Program-made: the position numbers and the translations under genes | Notes under the pieces: model-generated | Database searches by the model: none | What the model was told of the DNA's origin: nothing | The model's input: the letters and a program-made list of their open reading frames with translations, nothing else | Source of the DNA: Candidatus Xenobia bacterium | Lineage (GTDB): Bacteria > Vulcanimicrobiota > Xenobia > Xenobiales > QWHO01 | Assembly (NCBI GenBank): GCA_045863235.1 | Contig: BTUM01000028.1 | Location: 1 to 64,000 of the forward strand | Direction of reading: 5' to 3' | Length of the DNA: 64,000 nucleotides | Part shown: in pieces, positions 4,445-17,702 of the stretch | How positions within the stretch are numbered: the first letter of the stretch is position 1 | Layout of the letters: each line of letters opens with the position of its first letter

Positions 4445-6856
4445 ATGAATCCAGGAGTCGTGTCCTCGGGAGCGGGGGGCCACCTCTGGGCTCGTCCGCG
4501 GCCAGCCGGCGCCAGGGACGAGGGGCCGGTCGATCAGTTCAGCACCAACGTGGTGGTGCCGTCCTTAAGCCTCGATCCTCGAGAGCTGGCCAAGGTCACC
4601 GGAGCGGCCCTCTACGAAGAACGCCAGTTGCACGAGACCCTGGCTGACCAGGTCGTTTTCGTCAGCTCGGCCCCGGTTCACCCCAGCATCGCCGAATACT
4701 ACCTGCAGTATCTGCCCGAGCGCAGCTGGTCGGATCGCCAGGTGCACTTCGTCTCGGTGGGCGATCAGAGTCCCACCCCCCTGAGCCAGAAGCTTCTTTC
4801 CAGCCACGCCACCATGGAGAAGGTGCGCCAGGCCATGGGTCCCTATCCCCGCATGACCTGCTTCGTCAGCTCGCTGGCCGAGAAACAGGTGGCCACCGAG
4901 CTGGGGATCCCCCTCTACGCCACCGATCCCTCGCTGCTGGAGTGGGGCACCAAGTCGGGCAGCCGCCAGACCTTCGCCGAGTGTGGGGTGCCCCACCCGG
5001 ACGGCACCCCTCTGGTGCGCTCGGCCCAGGAGCTGGCCGCTCAGATCGACCTGGTCATGGAGCGCAATCCATCGGCTCGCAAGATGGTGGTGAAGCTGAA
5101 TGAGGGCTTCTCAGGGGAGGGCAACGCCATCTTGAAGCTGCCCGAGATCGCCCCCGGCACTCCCCGCGAGGAACGCCTGGATGCCATCGAGGATGCCCTC
5201 CATCACATGCGCTACCAGGCTCCGAACGAATCGTGGATCACCTTCTCGGGGCGCTTCGAGGACTTGGGCGTGCTGGCCGAATGCTTCGTGGAGGGCGCCA
5301 CCTCTTCGCCCAGCGCGCAGGCCAAGATCTTGCCCGATGGATCGGTTGAGGTCGTCTCCACCCATGAGCAGGTGCTCGGTGGGCCCGACGGACAGGTCTA
5401 CCTGGGCAGCCGGTTCCCGGCCGCGCCCGAGTATCGCGCCGAGCTGATGGAGCACTGCCACAAGATCGGCGAGAACCTGTCCGCCAAGGGCTGCCGCGAG
5501 CGCTTCGCGGTGGACTTCATGGCCGTGCCCGGCGGGGGGGTGCAGGCCATCGAGATCAATCTGCGCAAGGGCGGCACCACTCACCCCTGGGAGACCCTCC
5601 AGCAGCTTACCAGAGGCCGCACGGAAGGCTCGGGCACGTTCCTCACCGATGCCGGCCGGGTGCGCGCCTACCGTGCCTCGGACAACGAGAAGCAGCCCCA
5701 GTTCCAGGGCTTCTTGCCGGGCGACGTGCTGGACGTGGCCTCTCGTCACGGCCTGCATTACACCGGCCGGGAGGAGGAAGGCACTACCTTCCACCTGCTG
5801 GGCGCTCTGCGCGAGTATGGCAAGTTCGGGATGTCCTGCATCGCGGCCACCCCCGAACGGGCCGAGCAGCTCTACGAGCGCACCCGCGAGACGCTCGAGC
5901 GCGAGCTCCGTCCGGGCAGCTTCACTCTGGATGCCCCCTCTCATCGCCTCAACGAGGCTCCTGAATCCACCGGCACGACCTCGGGCGGGTTGGTGCTGAA
6001 TCAGCGCGAGCACAAGTTGGACACACCCTGGCTGCGCACCACCGCTTTCCAGGGGCGGCGCATGGCGGCGGCGGTCAATTTGCGCGGTCAGCACGGAGTG
6101 CGGATCTTCAACCTCGAGACCGGTCAGCTCCAGGAAGAGGTGCCCGGGCATAAGACCCCGGTCCGGGCGCTGGCCCTGACCGGCCACCAGCTGGCCTCGG
6201 GCTCGGCGGACGGGGAGGTTCGCCTGCAACGCAAGGAGGGGGGGGCGCAAAGCTTCCAGGTGGATGGGCTGGTCAACGCGCTGGCCTTCTCCCCCGACGA
6301 GAAAGAGCTCGCGGTCGGCTCCAGCGACCACGCCCTGCACATCTTCGATCTCAAGTCCGGCCAGCAGCGCAAGCTCGAAGGACACGGTCACTGGGTGCGG
6401 GCGGTCGCCTACCGCGGGCGAGAGGTCCTCTCTGGCAGCCAGGACGGAACCGTGCGCCAGTGGGACGCCCGGGGCAAGACCCGGCGTATTCTCGACTGCG
6501 GCGCCGGGGTGCTGAGCCTGTCGGTCAGCCCCGACCAGAGCCAGGTGGCCGTGGCCACGGCTGATCGCAGGCTCTCCATGTGGAACCTCGAGACGGGAGA
6601 GCCGCTCTGGCAGCGTCAGCTGGACTGGCAGCCCGAGGAGGTGCGCTTTGCACCCGACGGGCGCCACCTGATCTTTCGCTCCTCCAGCGGAGGCCTGCAG
6701 CTCGCGTCGGCCGCAGAGGGCACGCCGGGTCTGGAGCTGCCGCTCGACTTCGCGGTGGGCGCGGTGGCCGCCCGCAAGACCGACATGGGCCTCGAGCTGA
6801 CCGCCGCATCGGGCGCGGGCGAGCTGCGGCGCTGGTCGGTGCTACCTGGGGCCTGA
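4445..6856 (+). CDS. PGM1-like ATP-grasp (peptide ligase-related) protein fused to C-terminal WD40 repeats
   Basis: VVVPSLSLD..YEERQL, WGTKSGSR, VVKLNEGFSGEGNA, STHEQVLGG, FAVDF, IEINLRKGGTTHP; C-terminal GH..V..LA, ASGSADGEVR, SGSQDGTVRQWD repeats. Confidence 0.8.
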   Translation: MNPGVVSSGAGGHLWARPRPAGARDEGPVDQFSTNVVVPSLSLDPRELAKVTGAALYEERQLHETLADQVVFVSSAPVHPSIAEYYLQYLPERSWSDRQVHFVSVGDQSPTPLSQKLLSSHATMEKVRQAMGPYPRMTCFVSSLAEKQVATELGIPLYATDPSLLEWGTKSGSRQTFAECGVPHPDGTPLVRSAQELAAQIDLVMERNPSARKMVVKLNEGFSGEGNAILKLPEIAPGTPREERLDAIEDALHHMRYQAPNESWITFSGRFEDLGVLAECFVEGATSSPSAQAKILPDGSVEVVSTHEQVLGGPDGQVYLGSRFPAAPEYRAELMEHCHKIGENLSAKGCRERFAVDFMAVPGGGVQAIEINLRKGGTTHPWETLQQLTRGRTEGSGTFLTDAGRVRAYRASDNEKQPQFQGFLPGDVLDVASRHGLHYTGREEEGTTFHLLGALREYGKFGMSCIAATPERAEQLYERTRETLERELRPGSFTLDAPSHRLNEAPESTGTTSGGLVLNQREHKLDTPWLRTTAFQGRRMAAAVNLRGQHGVRIFNLETGQLQEEVPGHKTPVRALALTGHQLASGSADGEVRLQRKEGGAQSFQVDGLVNALAFSPDEKELAVGSSDHALHIFDLKSGQQRKLEGHGHWVRAVAYRGREVLSGSQDGTVRQWDARGKTRRILDCGAGVLSLSVSPDQSQVAVATADRRLSMWNLETGEPLWQRQLDWQPEEVRFAPDGRHLIFRSSSGGLQLASAAEGTPGLELPLDFAVGAVAARKTDMGLELTAASGAGELRRWSVLPGA

Positions 6857-10409: not shown

Positions 10410-12449
10410 CTACGTGGTGTAGGGGCGAAGCTGGAGGACGACGATGCCCTCCTGGTCGATCAGCCACTCGATGTCGACCGGGTCGGAGAAGGTGTAGTTT
10501 GGCGAGAAATGCGACTGCAGCAGCCGTCCGGCGAAGGCCAGTTGTTGTAACTGCTGCTTGCGCTCCTCGGACAGGTCCTCCTTGGCCGCCCCCAGAGAGA
10601 GCGTGCGTCCGCCCCCCTCGACGGTGTTGTAGACGAACTGCAGGGGCAGCTCGACGCCATGCACCACGCTGTCCACCGAATGCGTGGAGACGTTGATGTA
10701 GACATTGCGAAAATCGGCTTTGTTGAGGGGGTTGGAGGTGACCAACACGCCCCCGATCTCGGCTGGCATCTCCTCCTGGATGATCACGCCCATCCAGCAG
10801 TCGTCCAGCGAGATGCCAACCTCCTGGCGCAGTCGCACGCTGCGGGGCGAAAAGAGCGAGGCCCAGACTTCCCGGATGCTCGCGAAGACCTTCTCGGCCG
10901 TGGTCACATGGTTGAACGACTCATAGATGCCGGCGGCGGAGAAGTTCTCCAGGTCCTCGGCATTGGAGGAGCTGCGCACCACGAAGCTGCCCACCCCGGC
11001 CAGGTGATTGGCGATGGCCGAATCGATCACCTCGCGCATGGCGTCGGGCAATCGCATGGCCCGGATCCGGGTGACCAGGTCGAGACAGAGCGGCTCGAGC
11101 TCGCGCGCATTGAGCTGCAGGGCCATTTTGAGCTTGCCGATGCCCTGCTGCAGGCCGGGGCTCGACTGCAAGAACTGCTGATTGAGCGAGAATGGCAAAG
11201 CGATGCCCCGGGGAACCCGGATCGTGTGGCGCAGGAACTCGGCTGCCTTGGCGGCCACCAGGGCGTTGTCTTGAACTTCGGTCTCGCTCATGCCGATGAA
11301 CTTGCCCAGGTAGGGGATCAGGTTGGCTCGCGGGGGGCGGCGGATCTTGTAGAACCCCAGCACCCTCTCCGAGCCGTGCTCGAGCAGGTGGCTCAGCTCG
11401 CCGAGGTGGGCAGCCTTGGTGCCGTAGCGGAAGCGGTCGGTCAGCCGCAGCTTGTCCAGCTCCACGATGGGCACGTGGTCGGTCTCGGGCTCCTCCAGCA
11501 CGATGCGCTGGGTGGCCCAGGCCGGGCGCACCTGCTCGCTGGCGGGCGGCTCCTCGATGGGCTCGAGAACCACTTCTTGCGCGGTGATCTCCACCGTCAT
11601 CTCGACCCACTGGCCATCCAACCCGCGCTCAGCAATCTTTTCCAGTATGCCGATCTGGACACAGTTGGGGATGCCCCACCCGGAGGCCAGCACGTTGGTG
11701 TGGGACAGGGGAGTTGTGTGCTCGGCGTTGAGGATGCCCGACAGACGAGGGATATCATCGGGAACGCGGCGCATGGCGATGATGTCGAACCACTCCAGGG
11801 TGGGCCGTTCGCGCGCATACTCTTTCTCGCTCTGAAAGACTCGCAGCCTCCCGCTTGCCTTTCCAGCGTTGAGGGCCAGGAAGTCGGACGAGGCAAACAG
11901 CTCGTGATGGAAGATGCGCGGCATCTCGGACGGGTGGATGCGGCCCATGATGGCTTCCTGGTTGTGGTTGGCTGGCTTGAAGAGGAGGGGCAGCTCGCGG
12001 TCGAGGTAGGCTCGCACCCACTTGCGGAAGTAGCGCACCATGGCCTCGTCCATGGTATCGATCTCCACCGTTTCCAGGGTGAAGAACCGCTCTTCCTTTT
12101 TGTGCAGAGCCACGATGCCCAGCAAGTATTGTCGGTCTGGCGAGAGGTAGACGCTCTGGTTGAACTCGTCGATGCGCTTGTCGAGCTCGGTGCGGGGAAT
12201 GCCCATGATGGCTTCGGCGATGTAGTCGGAGTGAAACTGGTAGGCGTTGTAGTTGATGAAGTGCACTACCGGATGGGCCTGGTTGGCCCGATCCACCACC
12301 ACCTTGACGAAGGGATAGCCGGCCAGGTTGCCGGCCATCTGGGCGAAGGCGTGGAGCGTCAGCCGCTCGCCCACGATGCCCTTGACCGGTTGGTCCTGCT
12401 CGCCCTCGAGCTCGAGTCCCTCTTCTTCTACCACCCTTGGGTCCTTCAT
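10410..12449 (-). CDS. PEP-utilising dikinase-like enzyme (phospho-His swivel domain + PPDK/PEP-synthase ATP-binding domain)
   Basis: TPLSHTNVLASGWGIPN (mobile His domain), YGTKAAHLGEL, VVRSSSNAEDLENFSAAGIYES, VWASLFSPR, DIEW...LQLRPY. Confidence 0.85.
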   Translation of the reverse strand: MKDPRVVEEEGLELEGEQDQPVKGIVGERLTLHAFAQMAGNLAGYPFVKVVVDRANQAHPVVHFINYNAYQFHSDYIAEAIMGIPRTELDKRIDEFNQSVYLSPDRQYLLGIVALHKKEERFFTLETVEIDTMDEAMVRYFRKWVRAYLDRELPLLFKPANHNQEAIMGRIHPSEMPRIFHHELFASSDFLALNAGKASGRLRVFQSEKEYARERPTLEWFDIIAMRRVPDDIPRLSGILNAEHTTPLSHTNVLASGWGIPNCVQIGILEKIAERGLDGQWVEMTVEITAQEVVLEPIEEPPASEQVRPAWATQRIVLEEPETDHVPIVELDKLRLTDRFRYGTKAAHLGELSHLLEHGSERVLGFYKIRRPPRANLIPYLGKFIGMSETEVQDNALVAAKAAEFLRHTIRVPRGIALPFSLNQQFLQSSPGLQQGIGKLKMALQLNARELEPLCLDLVTRIRAMRLPDAMREVIDSAIANHLAGVGSFVVRSSSNAEDLENFSAAGIYESFNHVTTAEKVFASIREVWASLFSPRSVRLRQEVGISLDDCWMGVIIQEEMPAEIGGVLVTSNPLNKADFRNVYINVSTHSVDSVVHGVELPLQFVYNTVEGGGRTLSLGAAKEDLSEERKQQLQQLAFAGRLLQSHFSPNYTFSDPVDIEWLIDQEGIVVLQLRPYTT

Positions 12450-14082: not shown

Positions 14083-14155
14083 GCTCAGGGGGAAAAGCTC
14101 ACTGAGTCCCCGGCGCCTCCCGCGCTATGCTGGCTGCAACGGAGGTGCTACCAAG

Positions 14156-14356
14156 ATGAAACTTCACCTGCGCGTAGGCGGCCAGAGCCGCACCCGCGAC
14201 GCCGAAGACCTGGGCCTGTCGGCCCGAAGCTCCGATCAGGAGATCCGCCAGCAGCTCGCTCGCTACTACGAGCTGAGCAAGGAGCAACTCAGGGCCCTGG
14301 TGGTCGACCGCCATCCCGACGGAGTGGTCGTGCGCCCTCCGGCCGTGTTCGGGTAG
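14156..14356 (+). CDS. 66-aa putative ubiquitin-like/beta-grasp small protein ending in Gly
   Basis: GGAGGT RBS at 14141-14146; MKLHLRVGGQSRTRD..SDQEIRQQLARYYEL..LVVDRHPDGVVVRPPAVFG: strand-strand-helix-strand-strand pattern with an exposed C-terminal FG; first gene of an operon with a ThiF enzyme. Confidence 0.7.
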   Translation: MKLHLRVGGQSRTRDAEDLGLSARSSDQEIRQQLARYYELSKEQLRALVVDRHPDGVVVRPPAVFG

Positions 14357-14363
14357 GCCCGCC

Positions 14364-15833
14364 ATGCTCGAGCTTTCGGCAAGAACCGCACTGATCGACG
14401 CTTTCATGGTGGCCAGCCACGGCGACCTCAAGTCGCTGGGCGCCATCCACGACCGGGCCATGACCGAGGACCCGCTCCTCTATGGACCCCTGGCTCGCTG
14501 GTACCAAGACCACGGCGCCATTCGAGACCACAACGAGCTGTTCGTGGCTCACTCGCTGGTGAGCCCTTACCCGGAGCTTCGCGAGAATGGGCTGGTGCTG
14601 TTGCAGCGCCTGCGCCCCTACCAGGTGGCCCGGGTGGTGCGCTATCTCAAGGAGACCGTCAAGAACCTGACTCGCATCGCCCGCACGGCGGTCAAGATCT
14701 ATCTGCAGCGTCGCGAAGAAGTGCCCGAGTGGTTCGACGAGTGCGTCATCCGCGACCAGAAGTCGATGAAGTATCTCTACGCCACCCTGCGCATCAAGCC
14801 CGGCCCTCGGGCCGAGCAGACTCTGTTTCAGCAAAAGCCGCCCCAGGACAGCAGGGTGGCCGTGGCCCGTAACCTGTATCGTTGGCGTCACGAGCCGGCC
14901 TACCAGGCCCGGATGATCCGCGAGCACCACATCCAGTTCACCACCGCCCGGGGAGCCATCAGCAATTACACTCCCGGCGTGCTGGAGGCGCTGGTGGAGG
15001 TGATGACGCCTCCCCAGCTGATCACCAACCTGAGTTTCATCGAGAAGCGCGGCGGGCTGGCCCACGAGCGCATCCGCAGGACCGTGCTGGGCAAGCTCGA
15101 GCACGCCGTGACCGAGTCGCGGGTGGCCGAGTTCAAAGCCCTGGTGGCCCTGCAGAAAGTGTCGCCCGATCCGCACCTGGCCGACAAGATGATGGAGATG
15201 ATCAGCCAGCGCCTGCGCGGTCGGGGACGCATCACGGCCCACACGGCCCTGCTGGTGGACAAGTCGGGCAGCATGCAGGAGTGCATCGAGATCGGGCGCT
15301 TGTTGGCGGCGCTTTGCTCCACCATCTGTGACGCCGAGCTCGATGTGGAGGCCTTCGACTCGCACTCGTTCACGGTCAAGCCCAACGGCACCGGGTTCAA
15401 AGCCTGGGAGGAGGCCTTCCGGCGCATCCGGGCCGCAGGCGCGACCTCGATCGGCGTCTCACTGGCCAAGCTGAAGGACCGCCCCATCGAGCAGGTGGTG
15501 CTGGTCTCCGACGGCGAGGAGAACACCAATCCCCTGTTTCTCCAGGAGCTGAAGGCGCTCGAGAAGCGCCAGGGCCGCTCGGTTAAGGTGATCTGGATCC
15601 GCGTGGGCGGGGCCGGCAAGCCCTTCTGGGACGAGCTGGTGCGGGCCGGCGTGAACCTCACCGTGATCAACTTCACGGGCGACTACTACAACCTGCCCAG
15701 CGTGGTGCCCATGCTGTGCGCGGGAGAGCACCGCCAGCTGGTGGAGGAGGTGCTCGCCTGTCCCCTCTACCAGCGCTCAGACATCGACAGCCTGCCGCCC
15801 CAGTTCGACCCCGAGACCTATGAGATCTTGTGA
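14364..15833 (+). CDS. TROVE/Ro60-like helical domain + vWA domain protein
   Basis: Complete MIDAS: LVDKSGSM (DxSxS), GATSIG (T), VSDGEEN (D); N-terminal ~290 aa helical and basic, with a DPLLYGPLARWY..G.IRD segment resembling TROVE. Confidence 0.75.
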   Translation: MLELSARTALIDAFMVASHGDLKSLGAIHDRAMTEDPLLYGPLARWYQDHGAIRDHNELFVAHSLVSPYPELRENGLVLLQRLRPYQVARVVRYLKETVKNLTRIARTAVKIYLQRREEVPEWFDECVIRDQKSMKYLYATLRIKPGPRAEQTLFQQKPPQDSRVAVARNLYRWRHEPAYQARMIREHHIQFTTARGAISNYTPGVLEALVEVMTPPQLITNLSFIEKRGGLAHERIRRTVLGKLEHAVTESRVAEFKALVALQKVSPDPHLADKMMEMISQRLRGRGRITAHTALLVDKSGSMQECIEIGRLLAALCSTICDAELDVEAFDSHSFTVKPNGTGFKAWEEAFRRIRAAGATSIGVSLAKLKDRPIEQVVLVSDGEENTNPLFLQELKALEKRQGRSVKVIWIRVGGAGKPFWDELVRAGVNLTVINFTGDYYNLPSVVPMLCAGEHRQLVEEVLACPLYQRSDIDSLPPQFDPETYEIL

Positions 15834-16554
15834 GCTGGTGGCACCCCGCTTCGGAGGGGGCAAGATTCCCGTCTGGCAGGACGGCCTTCTCTGGGAGGTA
15901 CCGGTGCTCTCCGGCCCCTCCCAGGGCTGGGGCCTCTGGCGACTGGAGGACGAGCAGGCCAGTTTTGTGAGGCCGGCGGCCGCCTGGGAGCGCGAACGAG
16001 CGTTTCCAGGGCGGCCCCGCCAGGTGGTCCACCTGCTGGAAGAGCTCAAGAGCGGCCTCTGGAAGGCGGCTGGCCCGGGGCGCAAGGAGTTGCTGGTGAC
16101 GCTGGTCGACCAGGGGGCCGTCTTCGACGCCCTGCGCGTGGTGGACGGGGGACTGCGCTGGTGGAGCCTGGGACTGGCCAGCGGCCGGACAGGCAAGGCT
16201 CGACGCTGGCGAGAGGCGCTCGAGCAGGGTCAGCCGGTCGCCAACCTCAAACCCGGCCTGGCCCGCGCCCGCTCGCAAAACGACCCCAGCCTGGTGCTTG
16301 CCCGGGCCGTGGAGATGGCCGGGGGACGGCTGCTCGGCTGGGTGAGCGTGGCCAACGGCTACCAGGTCACCTGGGAGCGCCAGGGCCAGCGGATCACCTC
16401 CCTCGTGGACCGCCAGCTCAACTTGCAGCATGCCGGGATCTGCCTGGCCAATACCGACCGCCAGCATGACCTGACCTCGCTGGTCTCGCTCATCAGCGAG
16501 CGGGGGATGTCGGCCGAGGAATACCACTACTACTACGGTGGAGGATGGAGTTGA
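15820..16554 (+). CDS. Uncharacterised protein with C-terminal AGICL..D...DL.SLV motif
   Basis: Overlaps the vWA gene end and the ThiF start; typical GC3 codon usage. Confidence 0.75.
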   Translation: MRSCELVAPRFGGGKIPVWQDGLLWEVPVLSGPSQGWGLWRLEDEQASFVRPAAAWERERAFPGRPRQVVHLLEELKSGLWKAAGPGRKELLVTLVDQGAVFDALRVVDGGLRWWSLGLASGRTGKARRWREALEQGQPVANLKPGLARARSQNDPSLVLARAVEMAGGRLLGWVSVANGYQVTWERQGQRITSLVDRQLNLQHAGICLANTDRQHDLTSLVSLISERGMSAEEYHYYYGGGWS

Positions 16555-17144
16555 TGATCACCGTGTGCGGAGCCGGAACCGTGGGTGCCAATCTGCTCGA
16601 GAACCTGGCTCGAACGGGCCTCGGACCCCTGCGCGTGGTGGATCAGGACAGGGTGGAGGCCCGCAACCTGCGCAACCAGCCCTACACCTCGCTGCAAATC
16701 GGCCTTAGCAAGCCAGCGGCACTTTCCGAGCTACTCTACTACGCCGCCGGGGTGCAGCTCGATACGGTGGAAAAGACCCTGCGCGAGGACAACGCCGGCA
16801 GCCTTCTGAGGGGGAGCACCCTGGTGGTGGACGGTTTCGACAACGCGGCCTCGCGCCGGGCTGTGCAACTGGCCTGCCGCAAGCTTGGCCTGCCCTGCCT
16901 GCACGTGGGTCTGAGCCGGGACGACTATGGCGAGGTCGTCTGGGATGAGCACTACCAGGTGCCTCCCGATCAGGACGGCCTGCCGGCCTGCCGCGAGGTG
17001 GATCGCAACCTGGCCGTGTTCGTGGTCTCGGTGGCCACGGAGGTGGTCAAGGCCTTCTTGAAGGGCGGAGAGAAGCGCAGTTACGCGGTGACCCTGGGCG
17101 ATCTGTGCGTTTCCCCGCTGTCCATCGGTACCTGCCGTCACTGA
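16554..17144 (+). CDS. ThiF/MoeB/E1-like adenylyltransferase
   Basis: CGAGTVG nucleotide-binding loop, VDQDRVEARNLRNQ, SKP, VVDGFDNAASR; no CxxC Zn pairs; TGATG coupling with the upstream gene and GGAGG at 16540 (alternative start 16545). Confidence 0.88.
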   Translation: MITVCGAGTVGANLLENLARTGLGPLRVVDQDRVEARNLRNQPYTSLQIGLSKPAALSELLYYAAGVQLDTVEKTLREDNAGSLLRGSTLVVDGFDNAASRRAVQLACRKLGLPCLHVGLSRDDYGEVVWDEHYQVPPDQDGLPACREVDRNLAVFVVSVATEVVKAFLKGGEKRSYAVTLGDLCVSPLSIGTCRH

Positions 17145-17516: not shown

Positions 17517-17702
17517 CCGGGGCGGGGACGTGAGCGTTTTGTTAACCTGCCTGAAACCGTCTGGCCTGAAGGCGGTGTTAAAGTCCTCCCAGCTACGCTG
17601 ACCTGTTCAAAATGAGAACGGGAGTGTAGACAATCTGTTGAACGGCGCCGCGCCAATTCCTGAAGCGTTCAACGCTCGGCGCCTTAAGACTCGGAGGACT
17701 TC

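Follow-up and report, generated by a model that had tools for sequence, protein, structure and literature searches.

In the bacterial Bil and Bub conjugation systems, as in the Cap2/Cap3 pair of Type II CBASS, a beta-grasp ubiquitin-like protein (Ubl) that ends in glycine is found with an E1 enzyme bearing a crossover-loop nucleophile and with a second protein that has an invariant nucleophile. The ThiS-ThiF, MoaD-MoeB and TtuB systems likewise pair a small protein of the beta-grasp fold with a minimal adenylase of the ThiF family. The Rsr-YrlA systems (RYPER; Salmonella rsr-yrl-rtc) place a TROVE-vWA protein beside tRNA-mimicking RNAs that combine a constant stem with a variable module; they have RNA-repair genes as neighbours and are present in phages. 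These features recur in a four-gene operon, and in its relatives, on the plus strand of a 64,000-nt stretch of DNA from Candidatus Xenobia bacterium (assembly GCA_045863235.1, contig BTUM01000028.1, positions 1 to 64,000; hereafter the window). The operon encodes a 66-aa Ubl, a 489-aa Ro60-like protein with a vWA domain (Ro), a 244-aa protein with a conserved cysteine (ORF3) and a ThiF-family E1 enzyme.

The module to which this operon belongs is real and widespread, and apparently undescribed. With a probability of about 0.5, it is an RNA-baited Ubl conjugation cascade that uses the Ro60-like protein for target selection and acts on translation damage.

The four-gene module and its proteins

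The four genes lie within positions 14156-17144 and are tightly coupled by a 7-nt gap, a 14-nt overlap and a TGATG overlap (Table 1). An earlier note, made from the letters of the window, had described this arrangement together with an intact metal ion-dependent adhesion site (MIDAS) in the vWA protein, a GICL motif in ORF3 and a ThiF-family enzyme. The coordinates, gap and overlaps were all confirmed, and the protein features are borne out by the family-level data given below. The absence of thiamine, molybdopterin, desulfurase and JAB peptidase genes from the window also held among the open reading frames (ORFs) scanned (10 at E<=0.1 and 43 at E<=1e-10), which include no ThiG, ThiO, MoaA, MoaE, desulfurase or JAB. 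No nucleotidyltransferase family was found in the same scan.

The clustering of these genes is not due to chance, since 23 of 80 loci have all four within 8 kb of each other and the same genome contains another, paralogous cluster. The 80 loci, many of them cut by contig ends, are the best from a scan of GTDB genomes that gave at least 496 relatives of the Ro gene. Within 8 kb of that gene, Ubl was encoded in 54 loci, ORF3 in 31 and E1 in 28, and the same gene order and strand are kept in 21 of the 23 four-gene loci, which represent several phyla. Four genomes had no ORF3 at the locus and all four encoded it elsewhere. ORF3 was detected in 23 of 151 genomes of the phylum to which the window belongs, 22 of which also have a Ro gene, and in 24 of 201 genomes of the cyanobacterial phylum (one as a fragment only). 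Cultured cyanobacteria bear the module and are open to genetics. The neighbourhood search suggested by the earlier note thus finds wide co-occurrence, the relatives lie outside thiamine, molybdopterin and thiolation clusters, and the Ubl has a predicted beta-grasp fold with an invariant terminal glycine, so the outcomes that the note had named as fatal to its proposal failed to appear.

AlphaFold predicts a beta-grasp fold for the Ubl (predicted local distance difference test, pLDDT = 91). The best structural match among 48,161 chains was of the MoaD type (Z = 6.0, root-mean-square deviation (RMSD) 2.4, 63 aligned residues), and almost all of the top 50 matches were beta-grasp folds. The terminal glycine is present in 56/56 bacterial copies, each of which ends in xG and not GG. 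No Pfam family was matched. A weak match of the Ubl profile to L23 among the sequences of solved structures (E = 0.005, 38 residues) was rejected on the fold model.

The product of 16545-17144 is, judged by its sequence, a minimal E1. It matches Pfam ThiF (E = 2.5e-24), and the most likely start is 16554, where the ribosome-binding site fits. From an alignment, the adenylation motifs are kept and the zinc CxxC pairs are missing; the crossover-loop cysteine is near-invariant, with Cys149 of the window protein one column off. The enzyme falls below all NCBIfam cut-offs (best score of 71 bits vs a cut-off of 159), the nearest models being ThiF and MoeB. Two further ThiF-family genes are encoded in the same genome.

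By profile comparison, the 489-aa protein is a distant Ro60/TROVE relative that forms a distinct family. Residues 27-395 match a TROVE-domain protein (PDB: 9L5Y/9KOP, E = 5e-5) across both the helical and vWA parts, consistent with the TROVE region and MIDAS-bearing vWA domain of Ro60 and Rsr. The TROVE label of the earlier note is therefore upheld by a solved TROVE-domain protein but not by Pfam, whose TROVE model matched none of 52 members; Pfam assigned VWA_CoxE, and the vWA_Ro60 model matched 2 of the 52. The MIDAS (DKSGS...T361...D383) is invariant in 52 aligned relatives, and a MIDAS-like DxSxS is present in all 51 sequences of the tree. Close Ro relatives with no Ubl, ORF3 or E1 gene nearby were also seen at L153 and L154 and in other genomes of family f13, as well as at L152, L156 and L157.

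ORF3 belongs to neither a Pfam nor an NCBIfam family and forms 1213 clusters at 50% identity. In the AlphaFold model (pLDDT = 89), tandem OB folds at about residues 2-125 are followed by a helical linker and a C-terminal domain with the predicted order helix, four strands, GICL, helix, which we take to recall an E2 active site. Cys208 of the GICL motif is invariant in 127/127 sequences. The best match to the OB folds was the Mpa inter-domain (Z = 8.4, RMSD 3.1, 105 aligned residues), and they also resemble S17 and IF1. Neither ORF3 paralogue of the genome gave a usable match in the ESM Atlas, and the ORF3 profile gave weak matches only against the sequences of solved structures. The predicted secondary structure order and GICL motif are compatible with an E2/UBC domain, and no E2 was among the structural matches listed, an absence that excludes nothing as OB folds fill these lists. 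From these features, ORF3 may act as an E2-equivalent carrier via Cys208.

The same proteins could be arranged as a sulfur relay, in which the Ubl would work in the manner of ThiS, MoaD or TtuB, Cys208 of ORF3 would hold a persulfide, and the OB folds would present tRNAs or mimic RNAs to be thiolated, or thiolated anew after damage. The MoaD-type carriers closest to the Ubl fold, the ThiF and MoeB models nearest to the E1 and the tRNA-rich context of the module would all suit this role, as would the trimming of sulfur carriers by JAB peptidases, which accompany phage copies of the module. However, a sulfur relay is unlikely. Desulfurase, rhodanese and thiouridylase genes are missing from the scanned neighbours and from the window ORFs. 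Among 62 recurrent neighbour clusters, the 30 that were scanned included no sulfur-donor family (ThiG, MoaE, IscS, rhodanese or TtuA), and the rest were by eye antisense frames or unrelated genes. The two other ThiF-family genes of the genome and the xG end of the Ubl also argue against it. Further, 5 of 23 phage Ubls are tailed past the glycine, each beside a JAB gene; conjugation is therefore favored over sulfur transfer.

RNAs, neighbours and the window copy

A T-loop motif was found in 44 of 54 gaps between the Ubl and Ro genes of relatives (111 motifs in 77 kb vs 6 in 358 kb downstream). An adjacent tRNA-like RNA, a feature of Rsr-YrlA, is thus common among the relatives and is present in the second cluster of the same genome, while the window operon has none in cis. 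The RNAs form a family of 138 copies at 57 loci, in which a constant stem of two helices encloses a payload that varies. In the stem, 93.5% of cells are paired and 8 of 13 pairs covary, compared to 59% or less in slid controls (50 of 105 two-armed copies), a result favored by the choice of copies by their arms. Among 136 copies, the payloads were classed as T-loop (86), helix 69-like (9), sarcin-ricin-like and/or L11-site (6), other (5), short (12) and unclassed (18). The L11-binding region of 23S rRNA was matched by Rfam (E = 1.3e-13), the sole payload-motif label confirmed in this way; the other labels, helix 69-like and sarcin-ricin-like among them, are putative assignments by motif, no 23S gene being assembled in the genome of the window. 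Several L11 payloads are joined to what we take to be a sarcin-ricin-loop-like motif, presumably as a miniature factor-binding centre. No Rfam match was obtained for the stem family or for the helix 69-like payload, and an Rfam search of eight related loci gave nothing credible. The family is a fixed stem with swappable pieces of tRNA or 23S rRNA.

The recurrent neighbours of the module are L7/L12 (14 loci), EF-Ts (8), HNH (8), RNA ligase (7), KptA (7) and RtcB (3). In about ten loci, the module lies directly downstream of long tRNA arrays like those of cyanobacteria (trn operon, TrcR regulon), with HNH and RtcB neighbours. One study reports that translation stress induces arrays of this kind in Anabaena (PMC8421152). 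At L019, L020, L030 and L036, a second and unrelated helical and vWA-like protein (466 aa, no Pfam match) is encoded downstream of the Ro gene and accompanied by ARPP, RNA ligase and EF-Ts genes. A 111-aa protein encoded with HNH genes upstream of the module at L019, L030, L036 and L063 presumably resembles the TrcR repressor.

With RNA ligase, KptA and RtcB as neighbours, the acceptor of the Ubl could itself be RNA. The Ubl would then be ligated to the mimic RNA, or to RNA in the Ro ring that is damaged or misfolded, as a mark for repair or decay. The two predicted OB folds of ORF3 with their likeness to S17 and IF1 would fit such a role, and Ro60 orthologues act on structured RNA (PMC4201824, as far as its available part describes). 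This proposal is quite improbable, however, as the best OB match is to the protein-handling Mpa inter-domain and no precedent was found in the literature examined.

The window copy falls within a clade of 12 Vulcanimicrobiota loci (FastTree support of 0.71, midpoint root, 51 sequences) that make up a sub-family shared across several classes of the phylum. The sub-family is marked by a PxAVFG-type Ubl end and by an E1 that lacks the N-terminal HEQLYR helix, with its conserved Arg, found in most relatives. In four basal operons of the sub-family, the gap from Ubl to Ro contains a short stem RNA with no tRNA module. The genome of the window contains at least six intact, dispersed RNA genes, plus fragments, in which the arms of the sub-family stem are swapped (circularly permuted); these match no Rfam family and have no tRNA module. 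Duplicated 3' halves 1-20 kb past several of these genes suggest that they are used as integration sites. The sub-family RNA motif was detected in 9 of 151 genomes of the phylum, all among the 23 with ORF3, and a search for the standard-type stem gave nothing in five genomes where the window sub-family is the only or predominant type.

The dispersed genes appear to share a promoter with the operon. The upstream box GGGAAAAnnTCAC, a putative class II activator site, precedes 10 of 13 sub-family operons in a loose form. When nine operons from other genomes were used to make a promoter matrix, it gave seven sites in the genome of the window, at the operon, five dispersed RNA genes and one protein gene, compared to 3 and 1 sites for wrong-spacing controls. 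One training site came from a close relative, so the operon match is not independent while the RNA gene matches are. Thus, the dispersed stem RNAs are likely the cognate RNAs of the window copy. Four metatranscriptomes gave contigs over the operon and over an RNA gene; since these contigs also extend over the flanks, reach 5' past the predicted start and may derive in part from DNA, they show neither expression nor promoter. A 203-aa P-loop kinase-like protein (labelled by eye; contig C112, 11468-12130) shares this promoter box and is a possible member of the regulon. A Crp-family regulator encoded directly 5' of a sub-family operon at L004 (7173-7754), with related genes within 3 kb in L002, L006 and L007, is a candidate binder of the shared box.

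The second cluster of the genome (L001, contig C47, 1153-9821) is of the standard type and comprises two stem RNAs, Ubl, Ro, a pair of unrelated genes as insertions, another Ro whose N-terminus has a long extension, ORF3 and an E1 whose helix is intact. The window copy could be a paralogue that is dependent or in decay and takes its activation from this complete cluster, given an E1 without the conserved helix, no RNA in cis and an ORF3 shortened to 244 aa from about 280 aa. This is very unlikely, however, as the sub-family loci form one clade and keep all catalytic residues, a copy of this kind is the sole copy found in four genomes (G004, G008, G015 and G040), and two phage E1s also lack the helix.

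The viral set comprises 26 loci, with three near-duplicate pairs included. Ro was found in 25, Ubl in 23, ORF3 in 22 and E1 in 20, and in 19 the ORF3 and E1 genes have a Prok-JAB gene between them. The combination of E1, Ubl and JAB fits the architecture of Bil, and with a Ro gene in nearly every viral locus and integration-site-like duplications past the RNA genes, a role in phage conflict may be considered. The mimic RNAs would bait phage nucleases or other phage proteins for tagging, and phages would turn the module against hosts or rivals. This role is improbable, however, as one weak AbiEii match is all that PADLOC gave for Ubl, Ro and ORF3, the recurrent neighbours belong to translation and RNA repair and not to defence, and the sub-family spans several classes of one phylum.

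Table 1. Positions of the operon, its predicted control elements and related RNA genes. Loci and contigs other than the window are given before the colon.
Feature	Position	Strand	Details
Conserved upstream box GGGAAAAnnTCAC	14090-14105	+	21-23 nt 5' of the -10 hexamer
Predicted -10 hexamer TATGCT	14126-14131	+	From sequence and conservation
Ribosome-binding GGAGG	14141-14145	+	From sequence
Ubl gene	14156-14356	+	66 aa; C-terminal PPAVFG; Gly66 codon 14351-14353; no tail
Ro60/TROVE-like and vWA gene	14364-15833	+	489 aa; distinct family
ORF3	15820-16554	+	244 aa; Cys208 codon 16441-16443; GICL motif
Minimal ThiF/MoeB-family E1 (predicted)	16545/16554-17144	+	Crossover-loop Cys149 codon 16989-16991
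Permuted stem RNA genes, same genome (G000; L158-L163)	C18:63097, C53:46066, C14:122712, C21:64523, C20:67731, C13:about 121760, C5:110292	+, +, +, -, -, -, +
L11-region payload stem RNAs	L077:10785-10984, L063:11865, L065:4219, L068:13659, L016:9488, L018:9905		From Rfam
84-nt transfer-messenger RNA (tmRNA) tRNA-like domains	L055:7084-7167, L077:5573-5656		No coding part; upstream of Ubl

Elsewhere in the window, positions 4445-6853 encode a protein of 803 aa that matches ATP-grasp weakly and has WD40 repeats at its C-terminus, and 10410-12449 (minus strand) a 679-aa protein with the PEP-synthase nucleotide-binding domain alone at its C-terminus. Within the intergenic positions 17610-17690, several runs gave RNA contigs with loose ends to either side, which suggests a repeated or structured element.

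A proposed RNA-baited conjugation cascade

A conjugation cascade is the simplest account of an invariant glycine, two invariant cysteines in separate proteins and, in phages, a JAB peptidase with a tailed Ubl. The presence of a Ro protein together with modular mimic RNAs is most simply explained by tethering, described for Y RNAs in the available part of PMC4201824. Joined together, the two would give a ligase that acts under translation stress and uses RNA as bait for proteins engaging tRNA or ribosomes.

As follows from the chemistry of the ThiF/MoeB family, the E1 would first adenylate Gly66 of the Ubl. The Ubl would then be passed as a thioester from Cys149 of the E1 to Cys208 of ORF3, which would perform the job of an E2. 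By analogy to Ro60/Y RNA biology, the Ro ring would hold the constant stem of the RNA and display its variable part (tRNA elbow, anticodon arm or 23S factor-binding site) to lure proteins that bind tRNA or ribosomes, for example ribonucleases, toxins or factors. In the last and weakest step, ORF3 would dock via its OB folds and the Ubl would be moved to a lysine of the captured protein. A JAB peptidase may mature or remove the tag in the phage versions, and the window copy would use a short stem RNA without a tRNA module that is encoded in trans. As a tentative extension of this cascade, the module may be an RNA-programmed Ubl ligase in which the chosen RNA sets the protein that is captured and tagged via a non-UBC cysteine carrier, and a swap of payload retargets the system in bacteria and giant phages. 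The programmable payloads would mimic tRNA arms, the tRNA-like domain of tmRNA, or the factor-binding centre or helix 69 of the 23S rRNA.

Several observations weigh against the conjugation cascade. JAB peptidases serve and trim sulfur carriers too. A profile comparison of ORF3 to five UQ_con-like proteins was not significant (probability of 0.3%, decoys at 0.08-1.3%), and the N-terminal helix of the E1 is missing from the whole sub-family. A Ro relative without ORF3 occurs in 11 of 33 Ro-bearing genomes of the phylum; therefore, a Ro-RNA unit can stand alone. For the window operon, no RNA was found in cis and Rfam gave nothing credible around it, its flanks are unrelated metabolic genes, and the exact RNA motif is missing from seven sub-family genomes. 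Every characterised bacterial conjugation pathway encodes a peptidase, as stated in the available part of bioRxiv 2024.11.21.623953; the phage-type JAB was found in none of the 151 genomes of the phylum, a set without a positive control, and in none of the 80 bacterial loci.

The earlier note had proposed a self-contained system, possibly for RNA quality control or phage defence, with ORF3 as an E2 analogue. Of these suggestions, RNA quality control gained strong context from the tRNA-mimic RNAs, tRNA arrays and RNA ligases, but phage defence found no support given that PADLOC called no system and giant phages carry the module. As a statement of homology, the E2 label is unsupported by either the profile probability or the OB-filled structural lists. 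Self-containment is probably wrong for the window copy, whose probable cognate RNAs are encoded at other sites of the genome and whose E1 has no N-terminal helix.

If the cascade is correct, then bacterial Ubl conjugation and Ro60/Y RNA surveillance, which have been studied separately, are joined in one module, and bacterial Y-like RNAs gain a function as substrate adaptors. Should the payloads select targets, the system would be of a categorically new kind. The module also supplies a putative counterpart of E2 from outside the catalogued families, in over a thousand sequence clusters, and an uncatalogued modular RNA family with rRNA pieces. Its parts are small and all suited to in vitro reconstitution.

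Comparison with known systems

No named system was identified for the operon by Pfam, NCBIfam or PADLOC; the E1-E2 models of PADLOC were matched by the E1 part only. The gene combination was not described in the literature searched, and a prior mention is possible. It is likewise not described in the available parts of PMC1779556, PMC7159879, PMC7824862, PMC8421152 and PMC10272220.

In accounts of the cyanobacterial tRNA arrays, the parts available mention no Ubl, E1, TROVE or vWA gene, and the window copy has no array. Unlike ThiS-ThiF, MoaD-MoeB and TtuB, the module has no nearby synthase or sulfur donor and no zinc motifs, falls below the curated cut-offs and includes a dedicated cysteine partner. 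In comparison to Rsr-YrlA, its Ro family is below the detection of Pfam TROVE, the stem is of another sequence with no Rfam match, and the payloads include pieces of 23S rRNA and tmRNA. The linkage to a Ubl and E1 is also unmentioned for Rsr/YrlA in the parts available.

The module would resemble Bil/Bub most in its working, and its phage copies share a JAB with a pro-Ubl. It is not a member of this group, however (compare the available part of bioRxiv 2024.11.21.623953). The predicted carrier has tandem OB folds with no detectable UBC homology and uses Cys where that of Bub uses Tyr or Ser. The peptidase (JAB or BubE) of the Bil/Bub operons was found neither in the window nor in the 80 bacterial loci, whereas JAB is present in 19 of 26 viral loci. 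Type II CBASS differs in having a CD-NTase and a fused E2-E1 (Cap2), neither of which was found in the window. To the conjugation components that it has in common with Bil/Bub and CBASS, the locus adds a Ro60-like protein and RNAs.

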